Numbered from the stretch's first letter, positions 180 to 63,732 are shown. The stretch is 64,000 nt of DNA from an uncultured Gammaproteobacteria bacterium (GCA_964503955.1 CAZDCG010000003.1:65522-129521), one strand, 5' to 3'. Notes: a model not told the origin generated them from the sequence alone. Translations and numbers: made by a program.

Positions 180-208
180 TTGACAAATATTTTCAAAACA
201 AGTAAGTT
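180..208 (+). promoter_or_regulatory. candidate sigma70-like promoter (-35 TTGACA 180-185, 17 bp spacer, -10 TAAGTT 203-208) upstream of GC-rich lipoprotein gene
   Basis: hexamers read directly; weak -10. Confidence 0.3.
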
Positions 209-327
209 TTCCTGTTTCCTCGCTTCGTTATCCACAGTACAATGTGAGTAGGACGAGGCGGGGAATAACCCCGTTCTTGATTGTACTTTCCAATAGTCAG
301 ACCGGCGCCCCGCCGGAGGAGATCATC

Positions 328-2373
328 ATGATGAAGCATAGCCGTTTCCCGGCGGCCCGCGGGGTCGTCGGTTCCTGTCTTGCCATCCTGCTCTGTTCGC
401 TTGCCGCCATTGGCTGCAAGGGCGGAAGCAGCGGCGGCGGAGGCGGTGGCGGCGGCGTCACTCCTCCTCCCGGCGGCGGCGCCAACAACACGGCCCCCGC
501 CTTCACGAGCTCGACGGCTTCGCCGTCCACGCTCAAGAGCAACGAGACGCTGAACCTGCACGCCAGCGCCACCGACGGCGACGGCGACACGCTCTCCTAC
601 GCGTGGTCGCAGACGGCCGGGCCGAGCTTCGGCTCGATCCCGGCCGGTGCCAACGTCAGCCTGACCGCGCCGGCCGTGGCCAGCTCGCAGACGGCTTCGT
701 TCAAGATCGTCGTCAGCGACGGCAAGGGCGGCATCATCGAGCAGACCCACAACGTCACGGTCAACCCGGCCGGCGGCGGTGGGCCTCCTCCTCCGCCGCC
801 TCCGCCTCCGGGGCTCTCGCTCAACGGCATCAGCATCATTCAGATGCCCGAGCTTCAGCAGAGCTCGATCACTCGTCCGACCAATACGTCGGGAAAGATG
901 ATCCGTCTGCACGGCGACTTCTCGTCGTACCATCGCGATCAGTACGCTCTGCGTTACGACAATGGCGGTACGGCGGCGGTCACTTCGCTGCGCCAGGTTC
1001 TCCAGGGCAAGGCCATCGCCTGGGCTGAAGCACCCCGTCTGAGCATGACCGGAATCTACACGCTCTATCTGGACGTGTATGACACGACGACCCAGACCCT
1101 GATCCGCACGGCGGAGGCCCCTCCCGGGGGGCGGCCGGTGATCTCGTACAGCGATCCGGGGACCACCTACGTCGTGTTCAACGGCGAGGACGGCACGATC
1201 AACAACAACGGTCGTGTCTACAGCTTCGAGGTGGCCAATGACGGCACGCCGAGCAATAACCGCTTCATCGCGAGCGGCAACGGGCACGTCAACCGGCCTC
1301 GGTTCACCGCGGCTGGTTCGCAGCATGTCTTCGCCCCCGGCAATGCCGGGTTCGACGGCCTGCTGTTCAAGCTCGATGCCACCAAGACGAGCGGTCAGCT
1401 GTCGCCGTTTGACATCTCTGCTGGCATCCAGCGTGTCGTGATGGACTGCGCGACCTCGACGGTGGGTAATGCCGTGCTCCTGACGCAGACGCCTGGAGAT
1501 GTGTTCGTGGTTGTCGAGGTCGCCAATGACCTCTCCGCCATGGCGATCACCCCGCTGAACAATGCGGGAGTGGGGGCGCTGCTGGCGGGCACGACCATCG
1601 CCGGGTTCGACGTGATCCACTACCAGGAGCACAACGAGGTGGCAAGCGACTACGCGGTCATCGCGACTGCGAGCGGCAGCGACAATGCTGTCTACCTCGT
1701 TCGCCTGAAGGATCAGACGTACCGCCGTGTCGACCTCGGGAGCTTCGTACCCCAGGCCATGAGCGTCATCCTGGATCAGTCGAGCGGGCTGTGGCTGATC
1801 TCGGTTGCTGGGGTGACCTCTGGCACAGGAGCAGCTACTCTCACGGGGCATCAGTTCATGACGATCAAGCTCGACCCTCTCATTCTGATGCCTAGCCCGG
1901 TTGGACCGACGGCTCTGTCTTCGATCACGGCAAACGTGAAATCCTTCCACGTGTTCTGGGATGCTGCCAACAAGCGTCATGTCGGGTGGGTGATCAGTAA
2001 CGGCCTGAATGTGTACACCTGCTACGACCTGACGAACGGAGGGGCTCAGGTCGTCACGTCGGTTTCGAGTCCGTCGAGTACTGGCCCCACGGAGTCGTTG
2101 CGAGCTCGTGGTATGGACGGGTTCGTTGTCTGCTACAGCGGAGCAGCCTTCGGGGCGCTCTTCACGAGCTGGGACGGCAACACCACGGTCAACATCCCGA
2201 CCACCGACGCCCCCGACGCGGTTGCTGTGGGGGATCAGGTGATCGCAGTCGAAGATCGTCACTCCACTGGTCATCTGGTCAAGGTCTATCATGGTCCGAC
2301 CAATGCAACGGTCGACCACATGCCTCCCTTCAGCGCTTCGAGCAATGGAGGGTTGGGAACCGCGCTGCAGTAA
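328..2373 (+). CDS. GC-rich secreted lipoprotein with Gly/Pro-rich linkers and cadherin-like/Ig-like repeat (TDGDGDTLSYAW)
   Basis: GGAGGA 315-320 then ATG 328. Signal peptide with lipobox LAAIGC. Poly-G and poly-P linkers. About 66% GC against a 50% background. The antisense 742-aa ORF is a high-GC artefact. Confidence 0.6.
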   Translation: MMKHSRFPAARGVVGSCLAILLCSLAAIGCKGGSSGGGGGGGGVTPPPGGGANNTAPAFTSSTASPSTLKSNETLNLHASATDGDGDTLSYAWSQTAGPSFGSIPAGANVSLTAPAVASSQTASFKIVVSDGKGGIIEQTHNVTVNPAGGGGPPPPPPPPPGLSLNGISIIQMPELQQSSITRPTNTSGKMIRLHGDFSSYHRDQYALRYDNGGTAAVTSLRQVLQGKAIAWAEAPRLSMTGIYTLYLDVYDTTTQTLIRTAEAPPGGRPVISYSDPGTTYVVFNGEDGTINNNGRVYSFEVANDGTPSNNRFIASGNGHVNRPRFTAAGSQHVFAPGNAGFDGLLFKLDATKTSGQLSPFDISAGIQRVVMDCATSTVGNAVLLTQTPGDVFVVVEVANDLSAMAITPLNNAGVGALLAGTTIAGFDVIHYQEHNEVASDYAVIATASGSDNAVYLVRLKDQTYRRVDLGSFVPQAMSVILDQSSGLWLISVAGVTSGTGAATLTGHQFMTIKLDPLILMPSPVGPTALSSITANVKSFHVFWDAANKRHVGWVISNGLNVYTCYDLTNGGAQVVTSVSSPSSTGPTESLRARGMDGFVVCYSGAAFGALFTSWDGNTTVNIPTTDAPDAVAVGDQVIAVEDRHSTGHLVKVYHGPTNATVDHMPPFSASSNGGLGTALQ

Positions 2374-2410
2374 TGCGGCTCGGATAGAAGAACTCCCGTA
2401 AACGGGAAAC

Positions 2411-2452
2411 GCGCCTCGCAAGGTTTCAAACCATGCGAGGCGCTGTTCTTTA
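2411..2452 (+). terminator. rho-independent terminator, 10-bp perfect stem GCGCCTCGCA/TGCGAGGCGC followed by T-run
   Basis: inverted repeat 2411-2420 / 2435-2444 then tgttcttt. Confidence 0.7.
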
Positions 2453-13951: not shown

Positions 13952-14362
13952 ATGCATGATTCATTCAATGAAATCCTTCATGCGGCCGAGCTGAAGGCGA
14001 CTCCGGCCAGACTTGAGCTGATGCGCATCCTGCAACAGAGCGGGGAGCCCTTAAGCGCGTCTGAGATTATCGAACGATTCAAGGCAAGGGGGGTGGATCA
14101 GGCAACCGTCTATCGAAACCTCAGCGCTTTGTCGGCAGCCGGGGTGATTCGCCAAATTGATTTGCGCCATTCGCACGCGCATTATGAACTCGCAAGCGAT
14201 GATCATCATCATCTTGTCTGCCGCCGCTGCGGAACGGTTGAAGATTTTCATGGCTGCGATGCGCGTTCATTGATCACAAAAGCGCTCAGACAAAGCAGCC
14301 GCTTTGAACAGGTAGACGATCATGCAATCGAGTTGTACGGTATTTGCAAAAAGTGTCTTTGA
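13952..14362 (+). CDS. Fur-family metalloregulator (likely Zur-like)
   Basis: wHTH N-term, HHHLVCRRCG...CKKC metal sites. Confidence 0.8.
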   Translation: MHDSFNEILHAAELKATPARLELMRILQQSGEPLSASEIIERFKARGVDQATVYRNLSALSAAGVIRQIDLRHSHAHYELASDDHHHLVCRRCGTVEDFHGCDARSLITKALRQSSRFEQVDDHAIELYGICKKCL

Positions 14363-14602
14363 TTCAAACTCGCCAGACTAACGAGATTAGCCAGACGGAG
14401 TTATCTCTGAATACTGACATGCTGACACGCTGAACGCTTGAGCTGAGTGCTCTCTTTAAGGCCGCAGAACTCAGCCTCAGCATCAGCGCTCAGCAATCAG
14501 CGTTTAGCTTTCGAACTTGTTTTACCCGTCGCCGTATAGCTAAGATTCGTTTTCGTCTAGCCAATCTGGTGAAAATAGGTCATTGGGTGATTACAACGTC
14601 GG

Positions 14603-14631: not shown

Positions 14632-14760
14632 TTAGACACCACAGGCTTAAGAAGAGAGGCCTTGTTTTTGTATCATCATTATTGAACCAATCGCCGCAAG
14701 TATTCAGATCCCAGGGCTCAAATCTCATGAACGCTGAAATCTGAACGCTGCGCCTGAACT

Positions 14761-16764
14761 ATGAGAGATATCAACGTAACCGAACTGGCTCGCCGCCTGA
14801 AAATCCCCACTAAAGACCTTCTCGAACGTTTGCCCGAGATGGGGTTTAGCATTGGAAAGCGCGCCATCAAAATTAACGGAAAAATGGCGCAGGAAATTAT
14901 TGAGAAATGGGATATTCTCAATAAGCTCTATGAAGGAAAACAGGCCAAAGAAAAAGAACAGGCAAAATCTCAGCGAGGGCCTGCAATGGCGATCAAAAAA
15001 TCGATCAGCATTCCTGCATTTATTACGGTGCGGGAATTCTCCGAGCGGGCGGATCTGCCGGTTCCGCAGGTGATACAGGTGCTGATGAAGAACGGTATTT
15101 TCGCTTCGCTGAATGAACGCATCGATTTTGATACCGCGCAGGTTATTGGCGATGATCTTGGCATTGAAGTGCTTGCCGATCAAGCAGATGAGGCTGAATC
15201 GTCCGGCGCGAAAGGTGAACAGGTGGAGCGCGTGCTTGAAAGCGAGAATAAGAAGGACATGAAAAACCGAGCTCCGGTGGTGGTGATCATGGGACATGTC
15301 GATCATGGAAAAACCAAGCTGCTCGATACCATCCGCCAGACCAATGTTGTGGCCGGCGAAGCTGGTGGAATCACCCAGCATATCGGTGCGTATCAGGTTG
15401 AAAAGAAAGAGAAGAAGATCACCTTCATCGATACTCCCGGGCATGAAGCCTTCACCGCGATGCGTTCGCGCGGCGCGCGTATTGCCGATATCGCGATTCT
15501 GATTGTCGCGGCTGATGACAGCGTGAAGCCTCAAACGATTGAAGCCTTGCGCATCATTCAGCAGGCGGAATTGCCAATGATTGTGGCCATCAACAAGATC
15601 GACAAGCCGGATGCCAATATCGACCGCGTGAAATCCGACCTCGCGCAGCATAACTTGACTCCTGAAGAATGGGGAGGCTCCACCATGGTCGCGCAGGTTT
15701 CCGCCATGACAGGCCAGGGCATTGACGATTTGCTTGAAATGATTTTGTTCGTGGCAGAAGACAAGCAGGAAGACATCAAGGCAAATCCAAAAGGCCAGGT
15801 GGTGGGAACAGTTATTGAGTCGCATGTTGACCGCGGAGAGGGACCCGTCGCGACCATTCTGGTACAAAACGGATCGCTTGAACCGGGCGGGTATATCGGT
15901 ATTGAGGGAACGCTCTATGGCCGTGTTCGCGCAATGAAAGACTGGAATGGCAAGAATTTGAAAAAGGCGGTTCCTTCAACCCCGGTAAAAATTCTCGGAT
16001 TTAAAGTAGCGCCAAAAGTCGGAGATATTGTTCTTGTAACGGAAGATCAGCGCGAGCTGAAGAAGAAGATCGCGTATCAGGATTTGGTTAAAGACCGGAC
16101 AGTCGCTGCGGCCAAAACAATTGTCACTGACGAAGAGGAAGACGCAGAAAAGAAGAAATTCAATTTGGTGGTCAAGGCCGACACGCTTGGGTCGCTTGAA
16201 GCTATTGTGGAGTCGCTTGAAAAAATCCATCATCCCGAAATCAGCTTGAAGGTCGCTCAAAAAGGACTTGGCAATATCACGGAAACCGACGTGGCCGCAG
16301 CGGAATCGTCAGGAGCATGGATTCTGGCTTTTCACGTGAAGCCCACAACCAACGCACAGTCATTGGCTCGTGACAAACAAGTAGCCATCCGTGAATACAA
16401 GGTGATCTACGATCTGATCAACGACGTGAAGAAAGAGCTGCAGGCTCTGCTTGGCGAAGAACGCATCGAAACGGAAATCGGCCGCGTGGAAGTACTGGCT
16501 ATTTTCCGTGAAGATCAGGGATTGACGGTAGCCGGGGGCAAGGTGCTGAAAGGCAAGGTCGCCATCAATGGCAAGGTAAAGGTATTGCGGTCCGATATTG
16601 AAATCGGAGAAGGGGATATTACAAGCCTTCAGATCGGCCGCGAATCCGTAACGGACGTAGAAGCGGGCAATGAATGCGGATTTGGTTTCAAAGGCAAGGT
16701 AGGCCTTGAAAAAGGGGACATCTTGCAAATTTTCCATGTTGAGGTCAAGAAAAAACTTCTATGA
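14761..16764 (+). CDS. infB: translation initiation factor IF-2 (short N-terminal form)
   Basis: G-domain [20 protein letters not shown]. Confidence 0.95.
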
Positions 16765-17105
16765 GCCAGCGTACCGAACAAGTTGCTTCCGTAATCAAAC
16801 AGAGGCTTGGAGAGCTTATCTCCCGCGAAGTCGAGCTGCCATTAGATCATTTGGCCACGATCACAAGGGTTGAGGTTACGCCTGATCTGAAAGAAGCGAA
16901 TGTCTTTATCAGCGTCTTGCCATTTGATTCATCAGAAGAAATTCTTGGCCTGCTCAACGAACAAAGAGGCCGGCTGCAGAAAATGCTGCATGAAGATATG
17001 ACCATGAAATTTTCTCCAAAACTGAATTTGCTGCAGGATACCCAGCCGGAACAGGCATCCGAAATTGAGCGGCTTATCGACGAAGAACTATCGATGTTTG
17101 GGTAG
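16761..17105 (+). CDS. rbfA: ribosome-binding factor A
   Basis: ATGA overlap with infB; RbfA-like sequence. Confidence 0.85.
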   Translation: MSQRTEQVASVIKQRLGELISREVELPLDHLATITRVEVTPDLKEANVFISVLPFDSSEEILGLLNEQRGRLQKMLHEDMTMKFSPKLNLLQDTQPEQASEIERLIDEELSMFG

Positions 17106-17118
17106 GATAGCTTTAGGC

Positions 17119-17147
17119 TTGACATCCCCGCATCCGCACGTTACTAT
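17119..17147 (+). promoter_or_regulatory. sigma70-like promoter (-35 TTGACA 17119-17124, 17 bp, -10 TACTAT 17142-17147) for the DHH gene
   Basis: hexamers read directly. Confidence 0.45.
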
Positions 17148-17169
17148 AACCTGCTTATCGCAGGTTTTT

Positions 17170-18138
17170 ATGTCTTTGACCCAGCTTGAATTCGAAGCGG
17201 CTTTTCAGCTGCTGCAAAGCGCGCAGCGTGTTTTGCTCGTGTCGCATCAAAAGCCGGATGGGGATACGGCAGGGTCCGCTTTGGCGCTCATGCATTGGAT
17301 CCGCTCGCTTGGCAAAGAGGCTGAGCTTTTTTGCTTGCATCCTGTCCCTGATCAATATCATTATTTGCCAGGAGCGCATGAAGTCGTGACGGAACCAACG
17401 ATTTTCACGCGCGAGTGGGATTTGTTGATCACCTGTGATTCTGGCGATCTGGCCTATGCGGGGGTTGCGGAATTCATGCAGCAGCTTCCAAAAAAGCCGG
17501 CCATTATCAATTTTGACCATCATGTCAGCAATACATTCTTTGGCGACGTGAATCTGGTTGATGTGCAGGCTTCGTCTACAGCCGAAGTTGTGTATGCCTT
17601 CTTTCGCCGCAACAATATTGAAATTTCAAAAGAAGTAGCCACCTGCCTGATGACCGGGGTTTTCACGGACACGGGTGGGTTCAGCAATGCTGCTACCAAT
17701 GACCGTGCTTTGCAGATCGCGTCGGAGTTCGTGAAACGCGGGGCATCGGTCCGCCAGGTGCATGACGCAGTTATCGCCAATAAGCATTTGGCCGTTTTCA
17801 AGCTTTGGGGCAAGGTATTGAACCGGCTAAAACAAACCGGACGTGGAATTGCTTATACCTATGTTTTGCAAAAAGATCTGCTGGAGCATGGCCTTGATGA
17901 CGAAGCGGTTGAAGGATTGTCGAATTATCTGAGCAATCTTAGAGATGTGAAAGCAGTCATGGTGCTGATCGAGCGCGAGCACGGAAAAGTGAAAGTCAGC
18001 ATGCGCACTTATCGAAATGATGTGGACTTGGCACGCCTTGCCACGGCATTGGGAGGCGGGGGGCATAAAAAAGCGGCCGGGTTCACATTTGCCGGCCGGC
18101 TTTTAGAGCTTGATGGCGGTATCAAAGTCGCGGCATAA
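17170..18138 (+). CDS. nrnA: DHH/DHHA1 phosphoesterase, NrnA-like oligoribonuclease/pAp phosphatase
   Basis: DHH motif FDHHVSN, GGGH DHHA1 motif. Start taken at internal ATG 17170 to avoid overlap with rbfA. Confidence 0.75.
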   Translation: MSLTQLEFEAAFQLLQSAQRVLLVSHQKPDGDTAGSALALMHWIRSLGKEAELFCLHPVPDQYHYLPGAHEVVTEPTIFTREWDLLITCDSGDLAYAGVAEFMQQLPKKPAIINFDHHVSNTFFGDVNLVDVQASSTAEVVYAFFRRNNIEISKEVATCLMTGVFTDTGGFSNAATNDRALQIASEFVKRGASVRQVHDAVIANKHLAVFKLWGKVLNRLKQTGRGIAYTYVLQKDLLEHGLDDEAVEGLSNYLSNLRDVKAVMVLIEREHGKVKVSMRTYRNDVDLARLATALGGGGHKKAAGFTFAGRLLELDGGIKVAA

Positions 18139-18197
18139 AGCTAAAAAGCTGAAAAACTGAGAATCTGAAAATGAATAAAGAGCCGGTTTTCAGTTTT

Positions 18198-18452
18198 TTA
18201 GTTTTTCAGATTTTCCGTTTTGCCGCCAAAAATCTCGTTCAACAGCGATCTCGCCAACCGGTCTCGCTCTTCCTGGTCGGTTTTTTTATCGTGAATAATA
18301 ATTCTTACGGATGCGCCTTTTTCCGCGCCGTTTGGCAAGAGGTGTTTTGGCCAGCGCAGCTCCTGCCCGTCGTTCAATGCCAAAACCGCTTCGTTTTCAA
18401 GAAGCTCTTTAATCTTCGCGCTCTGCGCATGTGGATGGTTTAGTTCGGCCAT
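18198..18452 (-). CDS. small hypothetical protein (84 aa)
   Basis: ORF bounded by hairpin terminator at 18140-18200. Confidence 0.5.
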   Translation of the reverse strand: MAELNHPHAQSAKIKELLENEAVLALNDGQELRWPKHLLPNGAEKGASVRIIIHDKKTDQEERDRLARSLLNEIFGGKTENLKN

Positions 18453-27037: not shown

Positions 27038-28078
27038 ATGCGTATTCTTGGTATTGAAACATCCTGCGATGAAACGGCCGCGGCCGTACTCGACGTTGAC
27101 GACAAACGCATCAGCGTTCTTTCTAATATCATCAGCTCGCAAATGGGTATTCATAAAGCCTTTGGAGGTGTCGTTCCTGAGGTCGCCGCGCGTCAGCACG
27201 CAAGCCATATCCATACCATCGTGCAAAAAGCACTTGAATCGACCCCGTCCGGCGATGGATCCGATATCGATCTTGTCGCCGTAACGCAAGGGCCGGGATT
27301 AAAAACTTCGTTGCTTGTTGGAACAAATGCGGCGCAGACCTTGGCCGCGGCATGGACTATTCCGGTCATCGGCGTGAATCATCTTGAGGGACATGTGCTT
27401 TCTCCCTTTATTGATCATGCCGAGTATCCGCCGCAGAAAGATTTTTTCCCCGTCATTGTGCTTACCGTTTCAGGCGGACATACGCAAATTATTCTCATGC
27501 GCGGCATCGGCCAGTACGAAGTGCTTGGCTCAACCATTGATGATGCTGCGGGAGAAGCATTTGATAAAGTTTCCAAGATGCTGGGGCTTGGATATCCCGG
27601 CGGGCCGGTTATTGATCGTTTAGCCAAAGAAGGAAATCCTAACGCCTTTGATTTTCCTCGTCCAATGGAACACACGGATAATTACGATTTCAGTTTCAGC
27701 GGATTAAAAACCGCCGTGAAGTATGCCATCCGCGATCTGGCAGGGGACCGTGAATTAACAGATCAGGAAAAGCATGACATTGCTGCTTCTTTTCAGCGGG
27801 CTGTTGTGTCTGTTCTTGTCAAAAAAACGATCAAAGCGGCCAAAACGTATTCAGCCAGGACGGTTTTTCTTGCCGGCGGCGTGGGAGCCAACTCCGAGCT
27901 GCGCGAGATGCTGGAATCAGCCGTGAAGCATGATCTTTCAGACGCAAAGTGTCTGCTCATCGACCGGCGTTATTCAGGCGACAATGCCGCGATGATCGCT
28001 TTGGCGGGGTATTTTACGTTTTTGAGGAATAAAACGAACCTACCTGAGATCAAGGTAGATCCAAAGTTGAGATTTTGA
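27038..28078 (+). CDS. tsaD: tRNA N6-adenosine threonylcarbamoyltransferase TsaD (Kae1/Gcp)
   Basis: MRILGIETSCDETAAAV, SGGH. Confidence 0.9.
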   Translation: MRILGIETSCDETAAAVLDVDDKRISVLSNIISSQMGIHKAFGGVVPEVAARQHASHIHTIVQKALESTPSGDGSDIDLVAVTQGPGLKTSLLVGTNAAQTLAAAWTIPVIGVNHLEGHVLSPFIDHAEYPPQKDFFPVIVLTVSGGHTQIILMRGIGQYEVLGSTIDDAAGEAFDKVSKMLGLGYPGGPVIDRLAKEGNPNAFDFPRPMEHTDNYDFSFSGLKTAVKYAIRDLAGDRELTDQEKHDIAASFQRAVVSVLVKKTIKAAKTYSARTVFLAGGVGANSELREMLESAVKHDLSDAKCLLIDRRYSGDNAAMIALAGYFTFLRNKTNLPEIKVDPKLRF

Positions 28079-28205
28079 GGAGACTTTACAGATTCACAGA
28101 GTGGGCAGACTCACAGACATCAAAAAGCATGTCGGTAACCAAAAACTCACAGACGAAATTATTTCGTGTCTGTGCGTCTGATAAGTCTGTGATATCTGTG
28201 CGTCT
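28079..28205. repeat. intergenic inverted-repeat element built of CACAGAC/GTCTGTG units (GACTTTACAGATTCACAGAG...GTCTGTGCGTCTG), between convergent tsaD and the PilB-like gene
   Basis: related copies at 47895-47935 and 51672-51682. Confidence 0.6.
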
Positions 28206-29942
28206 TTACTCAAGCGATTTCGCCACTCTAAACACTTCCGACACTTTGGTCAGCCCGTCGGCGGCTTTTAAAATACCATCGCCAACCATGGAAACCATGC
28301 CCTGGCTCACGGCAGTTTCCTGAATCGCGTATTCAGAAACTTTGTCTGAAGAAATAAGCGCCTCTAGTTCCTTGCTCATGGCCATGATTTCGTAGATACC
28401 GATACGGCCTTTAAATCCAAGTCCATTGCAGGCCTCGCAGCCGCCGCCTTTTTTCCATTCGATCTCAGCCGCTTTTTTGCCCGCATGCCCTCCTTTTTCT
28501 TTATCCGGTATTTGCGCAAGGATCTTATCAAGTTCGGCCAGCATCTCTTGATCAAGTTCGTCTTTGGCCACGCATTCTGAACAGATACGGCGCACGAGGC
28601 GCTGGCCGATAATCGCGTTCAAGGCAGGGGAGAGCAAAAAGGGTTTTACTCCCATGGAGAGAAAACGCGGAATCGCGCCGGCCGCGCTGTTGGTGTGCAA
28701 AGTTGAAATAACCAAATGTCCGGTCAGTGAGGCATTGATGGCCGTATCAGCCGTTTCAAAGTCGCGGATTTCACCCACCATGATCACATCAGGGTCTTGC
28801 CGCAGAATCGAGCGGAGACCGCCTGCAAAATCATAGCCGCGTTTTTTATCGACCTGGCTTTGATTGATGCCGGGCAATTTATATTCAACCGGATCTTCAA
28901 GCGTGATGATTTTTGTTCCCTCCGTATTTAAGGTAAGCAGAATAGAGTACAATGTTGTTGTTTTACCTGAACCAGTCGGACCGGTCGTGATAATCATGCC
29001 ATTAGGCTTGGTGATTTCTTCTTTAAGACGTTCATACGCGCCGCCCCGCAAACCAAGGTCGTCAAATTCCAACCCCGCAGAAGATGCTTTCAGCAAGCGC
29101 ATCACAATGCTTTCTCCAAAGGTGGTCGGCAAAATAGAAACACGCACGTCGATTTTGTCTTTGGTCAAAAAGATGGTGAAACGGCCGTCCTGCGGTTCGC
29201 CTGATACGTTTAATTTCAGTTTGGAAAGCAGCTTTAGGCGGCTTGAGATGCGGGGAAAGACGGTTTTTGAAAGGGAAGCGGCATCATGCAGCACGCCGTC
29301 AATGCGGTAGCGGATTTTTACGTCGTATTCTTCGCTTTCAACGTGAATATCAGATGCGCGCACCTGCAAGCCAAGCGCGATGACGGCCGTGACAATATCG
29401 GACGTGTTCACGCCTTCGATGATCTTTTGCAAATCAGTGAGGGTAACGACTTCCTGAGAGAAGCGTTTAACATCGTCTTCAGAAATCTCCACACCCGAAA
29501 CGACTTTGCGCAGCTTGGGAAGATTCTCGTACTGTTTATGCGCCAATGAAAAACTTCGCTCCGAGATCAGGTATAACTTCACCGGGCGATGCTCGCGCTC
29601 TTCAAGCGTTTTTTTCAGCTCAAGGATTTGCGGGGTGCCTGGTCGAACCGCTCCAAGCCGGATTTCCTGCGCGCTCTGAAAAAAAGGAACAGCCAATAAT
29701 TCTTTGGACTGTTTCTGGTCCATGAGCTTGAGTGTTTCCGGACCGATCGGGAACTGTTCCAGGTTGATATACGGCAGGCCAAGCATAGATGCCTGGACTT
29801 TGGACATCCGCTCTTTCTGCTCAATCTGCATTTGCTCCATTTTTTGAGCAAAAGCCTGTTCCGCGCTTTTTGTCTGTGCCGGACTTGCTGGTTTTTGTGA
29901 TCCAGGCTTTGCGCCTGAGAGGAGGGAGGAAATATTGTCCAT
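28206..29942 (-). CDS. GspE/PilB-family type II/IV secretion (type IV pilus assembly) ATPase
   Basis: Walker A GPTGSGKTTT, Asp box, His box, C-terminal CxxC...CEAC. Confidence 0.85.
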   Translation of the reverse strand: MDNISSLLSGAKPGSQKPASPAQTKSAEQAFAQKMEQMQIEQKERMSKVQASMLGLPYINLEQFPIGPETLKLMDQKQSKELLAVPFFQSAQEIRLGAVRPGTPQILELKKTLEEREHRPVKLYLISERSFSLAHKQYENLPKLRKVVSGVEISEDDVKRFSQEVVTLTDLQKIIEGVNTSDIVTAVIALGLQVRASDIHVESEEYDVKIRYRIDGVLHDAASLSKTVFPRISSRLKLLSKLKLNVSGEPQDGRFTIFLTKDKIDVRVSILPTTFGESIVMRLLKASSAGLEFDDLGLRGGAYERLKEEITKPNGMIITTGPTGSGKTTTLYSILLTLNTEGTKIITLEDPVEYKLPGINQSQVDKKRGYDFAGGLRSILRQDPDVIMVGEIRDFETADTAINASLTGHLVISTLHTNSAAGAIPRFLSMGVKPFLLSPALNAIIGQRLVRRICSECVAKDELDQEMLAELDKILAQIPDKEKGGHAGKKAAEIEWKKGGGCEACNGLGFKGRIGIYEIMAMSKELEALISSDKVSEYAIQETAVSQGMVSMVGDGILKAADGLTKVSEVFRVAKSLE

Positions 29943-44406: not shown

Positions 44407-44509
44407 ATGGAAACATTATACGACGCATCAGCGCGCGGAAGCAATCGGGATAACAGTTGATTTGAACAGTTCACCATGCTAACGTGGCCTCCAGCCTGGA
44501 GGCAAGACC

Positions 44510-44692
44510 ATGCAGGATCCGACGAATCCGGTTTCTTTCGGTCGTTATCTGTCCAAGGGCGATGCCACTTCGACGGTCGTGGGCATCGTCATCCTGGTCA
44601 TCGCGTTGGTGGCCGTTGCGATCTATAAGGGGAGTCAGCCTGTTTCGAATCCGAACCAGGAGCCCCCCGCGGCGACGACCAGTCCTCGGTAG
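44510..44692 (+). CDS. small GC-rich single-TM protein (60 aa), speculative
   Basis: ATG after hairpin; TM VVGIVILVIALVAVAIY. Confidence 0.3.
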   Translation: MQDPTNPVSFGRYLSKGDATSTVVGIVILVIALVAVAIYKGSQPVSNPNQEPPAATTSPR

Positions 44693-44752
44693 AGACCGCG
44701 ATGCCGCCGCTGTACAGGCGGCCGGCTCGTCAAACTGAAAAGGGGAAAGAAA

Positions 44753-45355
44753 ATGGATACGGATATCAGGGATGCCTATCTACTCTGGCAGCATACCGGC
44801 ACGCCTGGTGATGAGGCCGAATGGCTGCTTGAGTGTCTGCGTGCCGGACGCATTTGCAAACTTCGCTTGCAGGCGGCGGCCGAGCTTGGGCATCAGGCTT
44901 CGCGCATAGTGCTCAACCTCACGGATGACGGCAGCGAGAACGCTGAATGGCCGCGCGCGCTTGCCATGGTGGGGAGGGAAGCCTGTGTGATGGCTGGCGC
45001 GGTCGTCACGCGGGAGATCGCGCAATCGGTCTTTGGGGAGGACATACCTGAGCTCGTCGGCGAAATCGTCCGCCTCTCGTCTGAGTGGCTTGAAGCGGAC
45101 AATGGACGAGACGAGCTTGAGCAGCAGGCCAGGCGATTGGCCCGGCACTGTTTTGACACCAGGCTTGAAGGGGATGAATACCTGGTCTTTGAGGCGGCAA
45201 GCATCCTGGGCTTGTTCATGTATGCTCCGCTCGAGCAGCCGGTAGACAGCCTTCTCAGCCTGATCCGTGAGCAGCGCATTCCTGTTTTTTCGACGATCCG
45301 CACCGCGGTGTCCCGGGAGCTTGTCTCATGGCTTGTGCATCGCCATGCTGAATAA
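44753..45355 (+). CDS. GC-rich orphan protein (200 aa), unknown function
   Basis: about 62% GC. Confidence 0.5.
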   Translation: MDTDIRDAYLLWQHTGTPGDEAEWLLECLRAGRICKLRLQAAAELGHQASRIVLNLTDDGSENAEWPRALAMVGREACVMAGAVVTREIAQSVFGEDIPELVGEIVRLSSEWLEADNGRDELEQQARRLARHCFDTRLEGDEYLVFEAASILGLFMYAPLEQPVDSLLSLIREQRIPVFSTIRTAVSRELVSWLVHRHAE

Positions 45356-45449
45356 GGCCGGTCCTTTCCCTTCGCGGGGAGGGGGCCGGTTCTTCTTTTT
45401 ACGATGAGAAGGAAGGGGAAACGTACCACCCCAAAGAGTCCCTTTGCTG

Positions 45450-45560
45450 CTTATCTAGTCTCTGATATCTAGTTTCTAGAGATCTAGAAACCAGATGCTA
45501 GATCAGATAGGAGGAGATAAACAGATTAGGCTTCGTGCTAGATATGCTGATCCAGATCTG
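45450..45560. repeat. cluster of six or more CTAGAT/ATCTAG units plus near-palindrome GTTTCTAGAGATCTAGAAAC and GATCCAGATCTG: iteron/operator-like array
   Basis: read directly. Confidence 0.5.
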
Positions 45561-45960
45561 TCTGAGAATCTGGTATGTTTGGCAACGCCCGCCTGCCTGC
45601 GACTCTCGCCCGCTAACGCCTGATGCGTAGCTATGGCGAGCTGGGAGGGCAAGCGATGGCGGGCAGGTCTGATACGTCTGGCACCAACCACCCTTGCTCT
45701 CATCCTCGTTCCTCAAATATCAAGACCCCCGCTGGCGATGCGCCTGCCTTGCTTTGCAAGAAGAAACCTTCTGCGCGGGGGTGACGAAGGGGAGGCTGTT
45801 CGGGATGATGTGTTGCACTTACGTGTTGAACCCGTTGGCGGGGACTTTACAAACTTTGTGCTTTATAGTACATTACCGCCACTAAACAATAACTTTCCCT
45901 GTGGTTTGCGCCGCGTAGAATTCATAGAAATTCGGGCGTTTACTGCGGAGAACAGCCACT

Positions 45961-46290
45961 ATGCTTGACCCAAAAGTCAAACAGAAGCTCATTAAAAAGT
46001 TCCGCACCCATGAATCAGATACGGGTTCAACCCAGATTCAGGTTGCGATTCTGACAGAAGAAATCAAACTTCTGACCGAGCATCTTAAAGACCACAAAAA
46101 GGATTTTTCTTCCCGACGCGGTCTGATCAAAAAAGTAAACGAGCGACGCAAGCTGTTGAATTATTTACGACGTACGGCTTACGATGAATACGTGGACCTT
46201 TCAAAGAAATTGAAGCTCAAGTACGCTGCTCCAAAAATCGACGCAGCGGCTGAAGAAGCCGACGCGGCAGCTGCTGCAGCACAGGCATAA
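45961..46290 (+). CDS. rpsO: 30S ribosomal protein S15 with about 19-aa Ala-rich C-terminal extension
   Basis: DTGSTQIQVAILT, RRGL, KLLNYL. Confidence 0.9.
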   Translation: MLDPKVKQKLIKKFRTHESDTGSTQIQVAILTEEIKLLTEHLKDHKKDFSSRRGLIKKVNERRKLLNYLRRTAYDEYVDLSKKLKLKYAAPKIDAAAEEADAAAAAAQA

Positions 46291-46297
46291 ATCTTGC

Positions 46298-46326
46298 CCC
46301 CCTCCTCTCCGGAGGGGGATTTTGTT
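46298..46326 (+). terminator. terminator CCCCCTCC-tctcc-GGAGGGGG ATTTTGTT
   Basis: read directly. Confidence 0.8.
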
Positions 46327-46473
46327 ACTATAGAGTTGTGGGTCACAAATGATGAGCGAGTGTTATGCGGAAGGTCGTTGTATTACGTCCTAACCCGCAA
46401 CGCAAAACTCATGATCCAACTTTTTAAAAACTAATTTTTTTCTCCTCTCATTTTGTTTGAAGAGGATAGCAAT

Positions 46474-47067
46474 ATGTTTAAGCATGTAGAACAGCGCGTA
46501 GGTGTTTTTATCGATACGGCCAATATGTATCACTCGGCCAAAAACCTCTACAACGCGAACGTGAACTTTGGGGAAGTACTCAACGAGGTCGTAGCCGGAC
46601 GCAAATTAATCCGAGCGATTGCCTACGTGATCAAATCATCATCAGATGAAGAGTCCACTTTTTTTGACGCGCTTGATAAGCAAGGCTTTGAAGTGAAGCA
46701 AAAAGAGTTGCAGGTCTTTGCCAGCGGCATGAAAAAAGCCGACTGGGATGTCGGGCTTGCGGTCGACACGATCAAAATGGCTGACCGGCTTGATTCCGTA
46801 ATCATTGTTTCCGGCGACGGAGACTACACTCCATTAGTAATCTATCTTCAGGAGAATAAGGGGTGTCTCGTTGAAGTTGCGGCTTTTGGAGAAACCACTT
46901 CAAGCAAATTGCGCGAAGTCGCGGATGATTTCCTGAACCTGAGCGACAAGCTTGATCAATTTCTTATCCGCAAAGGGAAGCGCCCGATGCAGCGGAATAT
47001 GGGAAGCACGGCACCGGCACCGCGCGCGGGTATGCTTGGCAAGCGTAAACGAAAAATTACGTTTTAA
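46474..47067 (+). CDS. NYN-domain (LabA/DUF88-like PIN-fold) protein
   Basis: VFIDTANMY...VSGDGDY. Confidence 0.7.
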   Translation: MFKHVEQRVGVFIDTANMYHSAKNLYNANVNFGEVLNEVVAGRKLIRAIAYVIKSSSDEESTFFDALDKQGFEVKQKELQVFASGMKKADWDVGLAVDTIKMADRLDSVIIVSGDGDYTPLVIYLQENKGCLVEVAAFGETTSSKLREVADDFLNLSDKLDQFLIRKGKRPMQRNMGSTAPAPRAGMLGKRKRKITF

Positions 47068-47069
47068 GC

Positions 47070-47894
47070 ATGCAGAGGCAACAGCTCAATCAGGGAATCG
47101 CCGCATTGGCCCTGGCCGCAATGTTGCTGGCCGGAGGGTTTTACGCGGACAAGGTATATGAACCTCCTGAGGAACCGCCCACCGTTGTGCTTACCCAGAA
47201 CGGGCCGGTCATTTTAGAAAAGGAAGCGCAGCCGGGGGATTTGCTTACGGCTCCGGATCTGAAAACGATCTATTATCTTAACGAGCAACGTGAGCGAATT
47301 GTTTTTCCCGATCCGCAAACATTTGAATCCTGGTATCCCGATTACAGCGGAGTAAAGCATATTGCCCGCGACTATTTGGAATCTTTTCCGCTTTCCGGCC
47401 GGAACGCGACCATTCGACCTGGTACCTGGCTTGTGACTATTCCTTCTTCAAGCCAGGTCTGGATGATCGGCCAGCCAAATCACTTGCATTGGCTCAGCGG
47501 AGGAGAACAGCAGGCGGTCGCATTGTTTGGAGAGCACTGGCTTGAACGTTTAGTTGATTTGCCTGAATACTATTTTGCCAATTACGTCGACGCCCAGCCT
47601 ATAGATTCAACGGATACCTATCCCGTCGGCTTGCTGATTCACGTAAAGAGCAATAATCAGTACTATCTCGTGACCTCAAACGGGCAGCGCCTCGTCACGG
47701 AAGAAGGGATGCAAGCAAATCATTTGCAGAAACGTTTCGCCATTGAACGCGAAGAACCGGTCAGTTTCGCGCAATTCGGTCCGCCTCTTGATGCCTACGA
47801 GCCTCGCTGGGGATCGCCGGATGTGTTTGAGCAGCAGGCTGATCAGGGTCCGGATGATATTGACGTGGGGGATGCGGAGGTGGGACTGCAGTAG
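47070..47894 (+). CDS. membrane-anchored or secreted hypothetical protein
   Basis: N-terminal hydrophobic segment. Confidence 0.55.
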   Translation: MQRQQLNQGIAALALAAMLLAGGFYADKVYEPPEEPPTVVLTQNGPVILEKEAQPGDLLTAPDLKTIYYLNEQRERIVFPDPQTFESWYPDYSGVKHIARDYLESFPLSGRNATIRPGTWLVTIPSSSQVWMIGQPNHLHWLSGGEQQAVALFGEHWLERLVDLPEYYFANYVDAQPIDSTDTYPVGLLIHVKSNNQYYLVTSNGQRLVTEEGMQANHLQKRFAIEREEPVSFAQFGPPLDAYEPRWGSPDVFEQQADQGPDDIDVGDAEVGLQ

Positions 47895-48080
47895 ACTTAC
47901 AGACGCACAGACGTTTAAGACGCACAGACAAAGGCTGTCTAGGTGTCTTTTCATTCTCCTTGAAAAATCATGGAAAACATGGTATCTTCGCCTCAGGAAT
48001 AATCAGTAAATTAATCATGGCATTTGACCGGGAAACAGGTAGACTGTGATCATTTCTCATAGTCTAAAGTCTCTCGGGCA

Positions 48081-50342
48081 ATGCCCGAAACTATGTTTGT
48101 ACAACCAAACAATGCGTGGATTCAACCGCGCGAGTTTTCTTTGCAGTGGGGAGGACGCGAGCTCAAAATCAAAACAGGCACCGTGGCCCAGCAGGCGAAC
48201 GGGTCCGCGCTTGTGCAGTACGGCGACACCGTCGTGCTTGTCACCGCGACCATGGCGCCTGAACAGCGCGGAGATATCGACTACTTCCCGTTGATGGTGG
48301 ATTACGAAGAGCGTTTGTACGCCGCCGGTATCATCAAGGGTTCTCGATTCATCAAACGAGAAACCAAGCCTTCAGACGAAGCGGTACTGACCGCGCGTTT
48401 GATCGACCGTTCTATTCGTCCGCTATTTGACGATGCGACCCGCTTGGATGTTCAGGTCGTCGTAACCGTTCTTTCCGTTGATGGCGAGAACGACGCGGAT
48501 CTTCCCGCGCTTATCGGTTCGGTGGCGGCCCTTATCACATCTGATATCCCATGGAGCGGACCGATTGCCGGTTCTCGCGTGGGGCGCGTGGATGGGGCAT
48601 GGGTGCTGAATCCCACCTACGAACAGCTCGCGCAGAGTGAAATCGATTTGTTTGTTTCAGGCGACGGAGAAACCACCATCATGCTTGAAGCCGGGGCCAA
48701 TGAAATTCCTGAAGCCGTCGTGCATGAGGGAATCCGTTTCGGTTTGAAGGAAATGAAACCGGTCATTGAGCTGCTTAAGCAGATTCAATCTGAAATGGGG
48801 CGTGAAAAACGCAATATCACCGTTGAATTGTCTGAAGAAGAACGCGCTGCAAAAGCGGAGGTTCAGCAATTGCGCGAACAGGTGAGCCAGGCGATTGCTC
48901 AGGAGCTTGAACAGTATTTCACTCCAGGCAAAAATCCTACCAAACAGCTGCGCAAACAGTCGCTTTCTGAGCTGAAGGCGAAAATGGACGGCATGCTTAA
49001 GGAGCAGCAGGTTGGCAAAGACAAGCGAAAGGAAGTGCTCAAAGTCTTCAAAGAACTTGTTGAAGAACATATCGGTGAAATGATTCTCAAAACCGGACGC
49101 CGTGTTGACGGCCGGGTGGTCACTGAAGTGCGTCCGCTGGACGTGACGGTGGGCGTATTGCCTCGCACGCATGGCAGCGGCCTGTTCACACGCGGAGAAA
49201 CCCAGGTTCTTACCATCGCGACCTTGGCTGGTCCTGGTGCTGAACAGATTCTTGAAGGAATCGATGAAAAGGGAACCAAGCGCTACATGCACCACTACAA
49301 TTTTCCTGGTTTTTCCGTGGGAGAAGTCAAACCGCTCCGAGGCCCTTCCCGCCGCGATATCGGCCACGGGGCATTGGCGGAAAAAGCGCTTTTGCCGGTT
49401 CTTCCAAAGAAGGAAGATTTCCCGTATACCATTCGTCTCGTGAGTGAAGTTCTTGGTTCAAACGGATCAAGTTCCATGGCTTCAGCTTGCGGTTCTTCGC
49501 TTGCTTTGATGGATGCGGGTGTGCCAATCAAGGCGCCTGTTGCCGGCGTAGCCATGGGATTGATCTCAAATGATAAGGGAGAATGGGTGGTTTTGACCGA
49601 TTTGCAGGATCTTGAAGATGCCAAAGGCGGAATGGATTTCAAGATCACGGGTACAGAAAACGGCATTACCGCCATTCAGCTCGATACGAAAACAACGGGC
49701 CTGAGCGATGAAATTGTTGCGCAGACCTTGTCGCAGGCTCGAGACGGCCGCATGGTGATTCTGACTTCCATGAAATCCGTGATTGCCGCTCCTCGCGCCG
49801 AAATGTCCAAATACGCTCCTCGGGTAGAGAAGATGATGATCAATCCGGATAAGATCCGCGATGTCATTGGTCCTGGCGGAAAGATGATCAATAAGATTAT
49901 TGAAGAAACCGGCGTGGAAATCGACATCGAGCAGGATGGAAGCGTCTTTATCTCTTCCGCGAATGCCGAAGGCATGGCAAAGGCAATGCAGTGGATTACC
50001 AATCTGACCAAAGAAGTGCAGGCCGGAGAGGTCTATACGGGCAAAGTGACCCGTCTGATGGACTTTGGCGCATTCGTTGAAATCCTGCCTGGACAAGAAG
50101 GACTCGTTCATATCTCTGAAATTGCTCATGAACGAACAAATGCGGTTTCTGATGCGTTGAAAGTCGGCCAGGAAGTGCAGGTAAAGGTGAAAGAGATCGA
50201 TGATCTGGGCCGTATCAACCTATCGATGAAGGCGCTTATCGAACGTCCTGCGCATCTGGCGCAAGACGAAGCGCGCCCACCTCGCTCAAATGATAAAGGA
50301 GATCGAGGAAATCGTCGCTTCATGCGTGGAAAACGAAGCTAG
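48081..50342 (+). CDS. pnp: polynucleotide phosphorylase
   Basis: two RNase PH domains, KH, S1. Confidence 0.9.
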   Translation: MPETMFVQPNNAWIQPREFSLQWGGRELKIKTGTVAQQANGSALVQYGDTVVLVTATMAPEQRGDIDYFPLMVDYEERLYAAGIIKGSRFIKRETKPSDEAVLTARLIDRSIRPLFDDATRLDVQVVVTVLSVDGENDADLPALIGSVAALITSDIPWSGPIAGSRVGRVDGAWVLNPTYEQLAQSEIDLFVSGDGETTIMLEAGANEIPEAVVHEGIRFGLKEMKPVIELLKQIQSEMGREKRNITVELSEEERAAKAEVQQLREQVSQAIAQELEQYFTPGKNPTKQLRKQSLSELKAKMDGMLKEQQVGKDKRKEVLKVFKELVEEHIGEMILKTGRRVDGRVVTEVRPLDVTVGVLPRTHGSGLFTRGETQVLTIATLAGPGAEQILEGIDEKGTKRYMHHYNFPGFSVGEVKPLRGPSRRDIGHGALAEKALLPVLPKKEDFPYTIRLVSEVLGSNGSSSMASACGSSLALMDAGVPIKAPVAGVAMGLISNDKGEWVVLTDLQDLEDAKGGMDFKITGTENGITAIQLDTKTTGLSDEIVAQTLSQARDGRMVILTSMKSVIAAPRAEMSKYAPRVEKMMINPDKIRDVIGPGGKMINKIIEETGVEIDIEQDGSVFISSANAEGMAKAMQWITNLTKEVQAGEVYTGKVTRLMDFGAFVEILPGQEGLVHISEIAHERTNAVSDALKVGQEVQVKVKEIDDLGRINLSMKALIERPAHLAQDEARPPRSNDKGDRGNRRFMRGKRS

Positions 50343-51671: not shown

Positions 51672-51718
51672 CACAGACGAGTGATCCTGCAGATAACAAA
51701 ATAGCCATCTTTTCACGA

Positions 51719-51744
51719 GAAGCCTCCTTATGGAGGCTTCTTTG
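51719..51744 (+). terminator. terminator GAAGCCTCC-ttat-GGAGGCTTC TTTG
   Basis: read directly. Confidence 0.75.
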
Positions 51745-51859
51745 CTGATCCTGTGGATAAACCACCCCTTGCAATCTCCCTCAAACCAAGTACAATGTAA
51801 TTGTAAGCGCCGTCGCAAATATTGAGACGGCGCTATTTTTGTTCTATTATCAACTCACT

Positions 51860-58698: not shown

Positions 58699-58707
58699 TG
58701 GTATAAT
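58699..58707 (+). promoter_or_regulatory. extended -10 TGgTATAAT for the T4SS-like operon
   Basis: read directly; the ORF-track TTG start lies inside it. Confidence 0.45.
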
Positions 58708-58736
58708 TGCACTCGAAAAGGACATTTTTTCCGTGC

Positions 58737-61394: not shown

Positions 61395-61395
61395 T

Positions 61396-62679
61396 ATGGC
61401 CGAACAAAGTCTCAAACAAAGAATTCAAAATGCTTTGACGGGGTTCAAGCCTCACGAGGCTTTTGAGCTTGTTCGAGAAGTTGAAGCATTGATCGCGCAA
61501 ACAGATCCTGGCAATCTCAGGCTTGCTGAGAATCTTGAGAATGTAAGAGCACAGTTGATTATGGTTGCGATGCGCTATTACAAGGAAAAAGATCTGGAGC
61601 GTGTCTTTGAAAACAGGGTCGCCGGTATCCTGAACTTGCCAGAGGATGTCGATCTCGTCGAATTGTTCAAAAACCGGCTTGCTTCAGAAAGCCTTTTAGA
61701 CGATAAAAATAGCTTAAAAAAAACCATCAAGGGTGCTATTGAACGGAGCGTTCAACGTCTTGGTTCATCAGACATCAGTCTAGGAACGGAGATCGTTAAG
61801 CCAACTGTGCAGAATTGGGTAAAAGTCTATACATCAGAAGTGGGCAGCAACAGAGCTGGAGCAGTCGAAATTGCGAGATTCTTCTCCAAAAATCCTGATG
61901 TTCAAAAACTGTCATCCTTAGATGCATCACGGCTTCGCAGATTGCTTCGCTTCTACGAATATTTGAAAATCGATGCGGATGAAATTGAGGGGTATGATCA
62001 GGTGTACCTTCTCGATGACCCGAACATTGGATTGGTTGCGCTTGATGATACCGGGGCCACACCTATTTTTACGGAAACAGTCTTGCGAGAATTGGAAAAT
62101 CAGGCTCGCAACGGTGAATTGTCTGCCGTAGACTTATCACAATTGCAGGTTCAATTTCCAGAACGATTCGATCGATATAAACCGAAGCGGCTTCCTGGTG
62201 ACGAGTTTACAGATGATACTTTGCAACAGCTCACGGAAACATACTTTCAAACAATGAAAGAACGTTACACAAATAGCAGTACGATCAAGGCAAAAAGCAA
62301 ATATAGTCCATTGCTTTCCAGCTTAGCCGTCACCCAGATGAATCCTGCGATTGAACATATTATTGAGCTTTTATCAAAGCATCTCTCAGATCGTTCATCG
62401 CTTTCAACCTTGTTGAATAACCCAGAGGTAAAGATCGCAGTTCTGAAGAGATTAGGGGCGAAAGACCAACAACTCATCAACCAGCAGCCGTTTCATCCCG
62501 TTGCATTGCAGGAATTTTTGCGAGCCCTCTTTGAAGGTGAATTAGGCTTAACGGAAGAAGAGAGTCTCTGGCGTTCTTACTTATTGCTCTCAAGGTTGCC
62601 GCTTACCCTCAAAGACTTCAAAACCATCGTTTCCTACGATGTTGCACAAAACCAGCTTGTCTGGCGGCATCAAACCTGA
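61396..62679 (+). CDS. hypothetical protein (427 aa) in T4SS-like operon
   Basis: tight coupling, 1 nt after upstream stop. Confidence 0.5.
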   Translation: MAEQSLKQRIQNALTGFKPHEAFELVREVEALIAQTDPGNLRLAENLENVRAQLIMVAMRYYKEKDLERVFENRVAGILNLPEDVDLVELFKNRLASESLLDDKNSLKKTIKGAIERSVQRLGSSDISLGTEIVKPTVQNWVKVYTSEVGSNRAGAVEIARFFSKNPDVQKLSSLDASRLRRLLRFYEYLKIDADEIEGYDQVYLLDDPNIGLVALDDTGATPIFTETVLRELENQARNGELSAVDLSQLQVQFPERFDRYKPKRLPGDEFTDDTLQQLTETYFQTMKERYTNSSTIKAKSKYSPLLSSLAVTQMNPAIEHIIELLSKHLSDRSSLSTLLNNPEVKIAVLKRLGAKDQQLINQQPFHPVALQEFLRALFEGELGLTEEESLWRSYLLLSRLPLTLKDFKTIVSYDVAQNQLVWRHQT

Positions 62680-62698
62680 GTTTGTTACAATCAACTAT

Positions 62699-63730: not shown

Positions 63731-63732
63731 TA

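Follow-up and report, generated by a model that had tools for sequence, protein, structure and literature searches.

Phased AGAC-core modules placed directly behind stop codons in a Patescibacteria-type genome, a possible REPIN/MITE-like palindromic repeat

The DNA treated here, a single stretch of 64 kb which is called the window hereafter, is probably a gene-dense part of a genome of the Patescibacteria/CPR type, to judge from its sequence. Intergenic DNA makes up 9.6% of it, and the homologues of its TsaD carry Candidatus, Patescibacteria or Parcubacteria names, the best of them being only 71-74% identical. Proteins identical to those of the window were found in one NCBI assembly and in Logan assemblies of the runs SRR11843815-35. 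The host DNA that was read, namely the 64 kb and about 2 kb more, yields three copies of a repeat module at two loci: locus A, which lies between the convergent genes tsaD and pilB, and locus B, which follows the last gene of an rpsO-NYN-hypothetical cluster or operon (Table 1). Textbook terminators with a GC stem and a T-tract, often bidirectional, are found behind many genes of the window. To our knowledge, the non-coding DNA of CPR/Patescibacteria, whose genomes are tiny and tightly packed, is almost undescribed. As for the two ends of the window, positions 58707-64000, like L155 11094-13494, contain large ORFs without Pfam match followed by PrgI-like and TraC-like genes, which hints at a gene cluster for type IV secretion or of a conjugation-like kind, and positions 1-2400 have 61% GC (window average about 50%), GCG/CCT triplet repeats, an ORF with PKD/Big_9 domains and overlapping long ORFs on both strands, 193..2421 (minus) and 244..2373 (plus).

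The repeat unit of both loci is a module of about 44 nt, in which five AGAC, AGAT or AGAG cores are placed 8-9 nt apart and which ends with AGAC[G/T]CACAGACA; besides a 44-nt profile, it can also be written as the pattern CACAGASNNNNNAGACKCACAGACA. The short units that make up the module are of the AGACNCAC-type and non-palindromic (AGACGCAC). In a preliminary description of this DNA, CACAGAC had been taken as the repeat unit, and this reading has to give way to the phased five-core module. The three copies, an inverted pair at locus A (A+ and A-) and one at locus B (B+), can be aligned over their full length, and the alignment, from which the profile was made, reveals position-specific traits common to all three: the third unit is a divergent 9-mer, unit four reads AGAC[G/T]CAC and unit five AGACA. 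When the position relative to stop codons was checked, all three modules turned out to be extragenic and to start at a distance of 0-2 nt from the stop with which the preceding gene ends. A single module is unstructured and has no palindrome of its own; the lone modules fold no better than shuffled sequences (-5.3, -1.8 and -3.2 kcal/mol; z from -0.3 to -1.1).

Table 1. Genes, repeat modules and further phased-unit hairpins, with positions counted from the first letter of the window.
Feature	Position	Strand	Description
GCTGA-unit hairpin	14404-14510		6-8-nt period; -44 kcal/mol, z -2.6; gap between fur (13952..14362) and infB (14761..16764)
CTGAAAAN (CTGAAAA-type) hairpin	18139-18225		arms of four 8-nt units each; -39.3 kcal/mol, z -7.2
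tsaD	27038..28078	+	stop TGA 28076-28078; convergent with pilB
Whole palindromic element, locus A	28079..28205	.	entire 127-nt gap from tsaD stop to pilB stop
A+ left module	28081..28122	+	profile match 28081-28123; begins 2 nt past tsaD stop
A+ cores	AGAC 28081, AGAT 28090, AGAG 28098, AGAC 28107, AGAC 28115		spacing 9, 8, 9, 8 nt
Spacer between A+ and A-	28123..28161	.	39 nt; extra CACAGAC 28148-28154
A- right module	28162..28205	-	begins directly after pilB stop; one exact AGACGCACAGAC
A- cores	AGAC 28205, AGAT 28197, AGAC 28188/28179/28171	-	spacing 8, 9, 9, 8 nt
pilB, PilB-type T2SSE ATPase	28206..29942	-	stop TAA (minus strand) 28206-28208
Looser CTAGAT/CAGAT-unit region	45440-45575		within 44407-45960
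Conserved hypothetical gene, 5' of locus B	47070..47894	+	stop TAG 47892-47894
B+ single module	47893..47934	+	first core overlaps TAG stop 47892-47894; two exact AGACGCACAGAC
B+ cores, all AGAC	47893, 47901, 47909, 47918, 47926		spacing 8, 8, 9, 8 nt
Locus B hairpin	47917..47961	+	last two AGAC cores pair with GTCT 47937-47940 and 47945-47948; then U-rich TTCATTCTCCTT
pnp	48081..50342		locus B about 150 nt upstream

What the lone modules lack is gained by their inversion at locus A. Folded as RNA, the whole element gives -53.5 kcal/mol on the plus strand and -54.2 kcal/mol on the minus strand (z -6.2 and -7.5), and none of 200 shuffled sequences was as stable, which bears out the long hairpin between convergent genes that had been noticed beforehand; as DNA, the fold has a z of -3.9. 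In both directions the RNA forms an interrupted hairpin of about 50 bp, where AGAC cores are paired with GTCT cores and the variable spacers become small internal loops, and its arms can be described as 31 nt at 77% complementarity or as 20 nt at 80%. By pairing between the extra CACAGAC of the spacer and 28168-28174, an inner hairpin arises (28145-28177), and a fold of 28140-28182 gives -11 kcal/mol (z -2.4). Two details of the preliminary description need correction: the string at 28079-28120 is present, though its left string ends with CACAGAG and not CACAGAC, and the inverted partner, GTCTGTGCGTCTG, is present at 28168-28180 and not at 28169-28181. A U-tract is absent on both strands of locus A, and the terminator scan of the window makes no call there. 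No direct repeat is visible as a target-site duplication around the element, which has TGA-GG as its left flank and TTA as its right one, and no sharply defined termini are seen. Within tsaD itself, CAGACGCAAAGTGTCTG (27938-27955) is similar to the AGACGCAC unit, and its complementarity to 28170-28181, a part of the right arm, is 92%. It lies at the position of TsaD where a relative carries a run of GTCAGTA, which may be a coincidence. Read-through of the tsaD UGA into the array was considered and rejected, as TsaD of the relatives ends at the same ...KLRF residues.

At locus B the related repeat that had been reported after gene 47070..47894 is found as described, with AGACGCACAGAC twice, at 47901-47912 and 47918-47929. 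The stem of the hairpin formed here is of 12 bp and interrupted, it is not steadier than shuffled sequences, and the terminator scan makes no call. The hairpin is a candidate terminator of the rpsO-NYN-hypothetical operon, a role that we infer with caution as z is just -1.25. The suggestion of a shared terminator is accordingly plausible only for locus B, with its stem and U-rich tail, while locus A is without a U-tract. After the tail, ahead of pnp, a promoter-like TTGAAA-17-TATCTT is seen, with TTGAAA at 47960, and B+ lies 27-67 bp upstream of this -35 hexamer. The order of rpsO, the gene for an NYN-domain protein, that for a 274-aa protein and pnp is conserved (window 45961-50342; L157, L158). 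The 274-aa protein has no Pfam match, and its homologues, about 40 in number, all belong to this Parcubacteria-type clade. The promoter of pnp, TTGAAAAAT...ATGGTA, is also conserved in three genomes, as is a leader hairpin with GTCT/AGTCTC. In two relatives the spacer before pnp is of similar length and has the same promoter and leader hairpin without an AGAC array; that of L158 carries, right after the stop codon, a hairpin with arms of 8-nt TTGCAAAN units.

Is such an arrangement more than chance? It depends on what is counted. The bare 7-mer CACAGAC, which had been expected to exceed shuffled sequences, is not enriched within the window: it occurs 8 times against 5.0 +/- 2.4, and 14 of 100 shuffles contain 8 or more copies. 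The 12-mer AGACGCACAGAC, with up to 2 mismatches, has 11 matches against 3.8 +/- 1.8, a number reached in none of 100 shuffles, and 7 of the 11 fall inside the intergenic loci A and B. Chains of at least four identical 4-mers at a spacing of 7-9 nt number 6 in the window against 0.17 in Markov shuffles; 5 of these 6 are intergenic, and 3 are the AGAC/CAGA/TCTG arrays of the two loci. A third site, CACAGAC at 51672-51678 on the plus strand, does lie right after the protease stop as had been stated, and a canonical terminator stands 3' of it at about 51705-51745. This one is a chance heptamer and not a member of the family, because the module profile misses it and the count of the 7-mer is at chance level. 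The idea of a dispersed REP-like repeat at gene 3' ends thus keeps two loci with three copies, each next to a stop codon, and the insertion at locus A, and it loses the third site. The profile built from the three aligned copies matches just those three copies in the window. In single-copy (non-circular) searches, the other copies are the top non-self matches, yet with E of 0.2-3. With such values the kinship of A and B rests on the phased architecture and a common 13-mer, and not on alignment scores; a 13-mer common to two intergenic regions of a 64-kb window is, by our estimate, not remarkable alone.

Comparison with relatives indicates how the element of locus A may have come into being. 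In the closest relative (L153), the stops of tsaD and pilB are 3 nt apart (TGA-AGA-TTA) and both protein ends are as in the window. In L121 the gap between the two genes is 48 nt and is a classic bidirectional terminator of A-tract, stem and T-tract, and in L154 the neighbour gene at the junction differs and the module is absent. These three represent different species (TsaD 71-74% identity) and not strains. No AGAC module was found in 68 kb of relatives' DNA. Since the stops are merely 3 nt apart in the closest relative, locus A is a lineage-specific insertion, that is, a gain of about 124 nt placed exactly between two stops. The copies retrieved from metagenome samples (3 for locus A, 6 for locus B) are identical, so that no presence/absence polymorphism was found among them.

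It is to be noted that the AGAC modules are not the sole phased-unit structures of this DNA. The CTGAAAA-type hairpin lies between a DHH-family gene (17065..18138) and a convergent DUF3006-like gene (18198..18452, minus). In L123 these two genes overlap by 4 nt, and the DUF3006-like protein of the window is about 6 aa longer, its last codons being supplied by the element. Another species has a homologue of it, though not at the orthologous site (L158 8597-8672, E 7e-4). A homologue at a non-orthologous place and a re-formed gene end are the behaviour expected of dispersed elements. A GCTGA-unit hairpin and a looser CTAGAT/CAGAT-unit region were also detected (Table 1). Besides, a short CTGAA-unit array (14728-14750) stands just ahead of the infB start codon, and the stretch of about 1.5 kb between an xerC/D-like integrase gene and rpsO (44407-45960), which is 138-230 nt long in L157 and L158, includes in its extra DNA a 200-aa ORF with no Pfam match. 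The relative GCA_964352335.1 has its own ACTGAC/ACTAAC arrays with units of 7-8 nt (L158 7545-7640; L123 8370-8405 and 10879-10910). In the same relative, the integrase gene is overlapped at its 3' end by one hairpin, an array comes after the stop of DoxX, and tsaD contains five GTCAGTA units in frame with the protein length unchanged. From the several unit families and the non-orthologous homologue it follows that phased-unit hairpins are dispersed and turned over between species; as far as the data reach, the AGAC family is the one specific to this organism. It might even be imagined, as a decidedly doubtful proposal, that the AGAC modules belong, as one family among others, to a class of phased-unit palindromes in Patescibacteria that is new to science and distinct from REPs and MITEs. 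The arms of that class would consist of 7-9-nt units with a common 4-5-nt core, and several families would coexist in a genome, such as AGAC, GCTGA, CTGAAAA and CTAGAT here and ACTGAC/ACTAAC and TGCAAAA in the relative. Its members would be inserted precisely at the stops of tightly packed genes, sometimes re-forming a gene end, and the phase would reflect a dedicated oligomeric protein or a novel copying mechanism.

Similar sequences were sought in public data. BLAST of locus A against plasmids and phages gave no match, and a pattern scan of viral contigs gave 0 matches. When genome contigs were scanned with CACAGACN{3,7}AGACGCACAGAC, at least 117 stretches were obtained, and among the matches listed none is homologous to the window. 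The matches listed are tandem (CAGACGCA)n octamer arrays of Streptomyces, Sorangium, Chloroflexia, Gemmatimonadales, Wenzhouxiangella and others, situated in 5' UTRs, intercistronic spacers and 3' UTRs, often beside other 7-9-nt arrays. In viral contigs, arrays of a control octamer of matched composition turn up about as often as (CAGACGCA)n; therefore these public matches reflect the search pattern. A rule of polarity, in which an AGAC array stands 5' of a GTCT array, found no support across phyla: among the matches listed, 44 of 59 arrays are solitary, and partners are found downstream 10 times and upstream 4 times. Some Gemmatimonadales copies (L030, L085, L086, L093, L105, L116) look MITE-like, with CTAGACGCACAGACGCA and TGCGTCTGTGCGTCTAG about 80 nt apart and CTAG-flanked ends made of octamer arrays, and their CTAG/TA flank resembles what we take to be an IS630-type target. 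A scan of metagenome contigs with a pattern that fits all three copies gave 23 matches, mostly eukaryote-like CA-rich low-complexity sequences, and none of the 23 is related to the window. One of them (L138 3483-3530, 70% GC) is a five-core AGAC array directly after tRNA-Ile and before a terminator, its last four cores being 8, 9 and 8 nt apart; an association with tRNA genes was rejected as a general pattern. Another metagenome contig, L131 56-140, has five 17-nt GTAGAGACRCRCGGACA units and then GGCTGTCTAAAAAGTCTTT, similar to the GGCTGTCTAGGTGTCTTT in the tail of locus B. Two other candidates were put aside, a Rho rut site, as the units inspected are without YC dinucleotides, and a DNA uptake sequence, as the 7-mer is not enriched outside the arrays.

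Could the palindromes simply have grown where they are? Slippage of units and template switching from arm to arm, known as quasipalindrome correction, might build such hairpins locally, and the likeness of A and B would then be convergence or a coincidence of low complexity. The pairwise E values and the 13-mer, which in our estimate is not in itself improbable in 64 kb, are compatible with this, and tandem arrays with 7-9-nt units of many different sequences abound between the genes of diverse bacteria, the genome matches above being examples; the control octamer array, too, is about as frequent as (CAGACGCA)n in viral contigs. The spacer between the hypothetical gene and pnp, too, holds differently built hairpins in different species. 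However, independent slippage is not expected to give the same five-unit layout with position-specific differences in three copies, nor is it likely by chance that one 4-mer core occupies three of six phased arrays. Moreover, locus A looks like a single gain at a junction of 3 nt, and for the CTGAAAA-type hairpin another species offers a significant homologue at a site that is not orthologous. Local growth is hence rather unlikely in our view, and copying of a repeat to gene ends is preferred.

A guide-RNA array or some other RNA array already known deserves mention, as TIGR arrays are common in CPR, often end in a terminator and, being made of short repeats, are hard to see with standard repeat finders (PMC12045711). 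TIGR units are of 36 nt, with alternating 8-12-nt edge and loop repeats and 9-nt spacers, in arrays of 5-15 repeats adjacent to a Tas gene with a Nop domain (PMC12045711). Loci A and B are likewise short-repeat arrays in a CPR genome, but with a period of 8-9 nt and a total array length of 44 nt, and the 36-nt unit, the two 9-nt spacers and the Tas gene are all lacking. Among the ORFs of the window, no transposase, RAYT (Y1_Tnp) or Nop/Tas domain was detected, and the unit size together with the lack of a Nop gene in the window effectively refutes TIGR-Tas. Searched against Rfam 15, the window has only tRNAs at the gathering threshold and nothing at E <= 1 around loci A and B. It is thus scarcely credible that the modules are TIGR, a CRISPR-like array or a known sRNA family, and we return to repeats of the extragenic palindromic kind.

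The closest precedent, as judged by build, is a group of paired tandem sites in Geobacter metallireducens, where hepta-, octa- and nonanucleotides form classes 1-3 of putative binding sites for global regulators (Aklujkar et al. 2009; PMC2700814). Several such families, which differ in unit sequence, coexist in one genome, with 8-24 pairs each, and they are absent from the sister species; their function is hypothesised only, as IHF/HU binding, and IS elements occur at a fixed distance from them (PMC2700814). The likeness lies in three to five tandem units of 7-9 nt, whose core is conserved and whose outer units are weaker, in a usual arrangement as inverted pairs on opposite strands at variable distance and in a species-specific, intergenic and multicopy occurrence. 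Here, five units are found, locus A has the inverted pair, locus B is a further site and the relatives lack the module, which places the modules in that class by architecture and not by homology. The differences are the units (GTTGCTYN, TCTCCGTS[Y] and MTYCTGA against the AGACNCAC-type here), the phylum, the 8-24 pairs per family against two loci seen here, and the IS elements at a fixed distance, for which no counterpart is seen here.

The precedent naturally leads to the question of whether the AGAC cores might be cooperative sites of an oligomerising protein, HU/IHF-like or ribbon-helix-helix, on DNA, or of an RNA-binding multimer, with the palindrome being secondary. Conserved cores of 4-5 nt, variable spacers of 3-5 nt and a fixed phase are a classic signature of iterated sites; the same core variant at loci 20 kb apart, and other cores in relatives, would fit a species-specific binder that co-evolves with its sites; the position of B+ upstream of the pnp promoter is suitable; and IHF/HU binding was what the Geobacter authors proposed for their paired octanucleotides (PMC2700814). 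On the other hand, locus A is located between convergent stops, where there is no promoter to regulate, a period of 8-9 bp does not fit the 10.5-bp helical repeat of DNA, and no candidate binder is encoded beside either locus. Loci of the same build carry unrelated cores (GCTGA, CTGAAAA), so one protein cannot explain the whole class. Another array of 8-bp phase is the metbox of MetJ, which consists of 2-5 tandem AGACGTCT operators, palindromic, in the met promoters of gamma-proteobacteria. It has AGAC at the unit start in common with the modules, which differ in that their units are non-palindromic (AGACGCAC) and located at 3' ends. All in all, arrays of protein sites are a live rival, though in our view an unlikely one, and we turn to the extragenic palindromic repeats.

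REP, BIME and REPIN sequences are known from enterobacteria and Pseudomonas; the canonical REP unit is an imperfect palindrome itself, and a REPIN consists of two inverted REPs and a spacer, about 100 nt in total. To REPs and BIMEs are attributed a stabilising effect on the mRNA upstream, weak termination and the binding of proteins. The modules resemble them in their lineage-specific sequence and in their place outside genes, either behind a 3' end or where two convergent genes meet, and locus A, an inverted doublet with a 39-nt spacer and a long hairpin (-54 kcal/mol), resembles a REPIN. They differ from REPs because the 44-nt module is unstructured alone and is built of phased direct sub-repeats. 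REPs count tens to hundreds of copies per genome, and the 64 kb and about 2 kb read here hold 3 copies at 2 loci; among the ORFs of the window no RAYT (Y1 transposase) was detected. MITEs, such as Correia elements, RPEs and Nezha, are non-coding elements of about 100-150 nt with terminal inverted repeats. Terminal inverted repeats (the arms of locus A), presence or absence at otherwise conserved junctions and the re-forming of a gene end, as in the CTGAAAA-type element, are MITE-like, whereas target-site duplication, sharply conserved termini and a cognate IS were not found. Cyanobacterial STRRs are near-perfect tandem heptamer arrays, intergenic and in many copies per genome, with function unresolved. 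The modules have short units in intergenic tandem arrays in common with them, while STRRs are typically not fixed five-unit modules and belong to another taxon with another sequence. Compared with an intrinsic terminator, finally, locus A does not have a U-tract on either strand, and locus B has a weak stem and a U-rich tail.

Taken as a whole, we favour, with a probability of roughly 0.55, a species-specific REPIN/MITE-like extragenic palindromic repeat that is copied behind stop codons and whose hairpin, in a transcript, can serve as a barrier or processing site at the 3' end. The repeat would be non-coding and dispersed, with the module of about 44 nt, unstructured alone, as its building block. 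At locus A, two inverted modules make up the imperfect palindrome of 127 nt, inserted exactly between the convergent tsaD and pilB stops, and transcription from either side would produce the interrupted hairpin of about 50 bp. The hairpin may protect against 3'-5' exonucleases, may be a substrate of RNase III or may work as a weak bidirectional terminator, this last activity being putative, given the lack of a U-tract there. The single module behind the stop at locus B would, by pairing of its final two cores with the two GTCT units, give a short hairpin with a U-rich tail. The role at 3' ends is suggested by the position, the stability, the terminator of a relative at the same place and general knowledge of REP and BIME sequences; copying between loci, or mobility, we infer from the multi-copy state, from the clean gain at a junction of 3 nt and from the way in which the sister family behaves. 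What stands against a dispersed repeat is that two loci and three copies were seen, that A and B match with E of 0.2-3, that target-site duplication, polymorphism and a transposase or RAYT in the window are lacking, and that the hairpin of locus B is no steadier than shuffled sequences.

What does this mean for the biology of these organisms? The architecture has published precedent, REP, REPIN, MITE and STRR form a well-known category, and the element is not a new kind of system; we know of essentially no description of such repeats in this phylum. As a single instance the locus is ordinary, and more interest attaches to the entire class of phased-unit elements as a lead. A phased build of 8-9 nt is also met in the unexplained Geobacter elements and in short-unit arrays of other phyla, and is thus a recurring and mechanistically unexplained one. 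Because repeats break contigs, such elements are relevant to metagenome assembly, and as they can replace canonical terminators and alter gene ends, they bear on gene calling and on the prediction of operons and terminators. Lineage-specific palindromes wedged between stop codons would mean that even tiny, packed genomes carry selfish or structural repeats.
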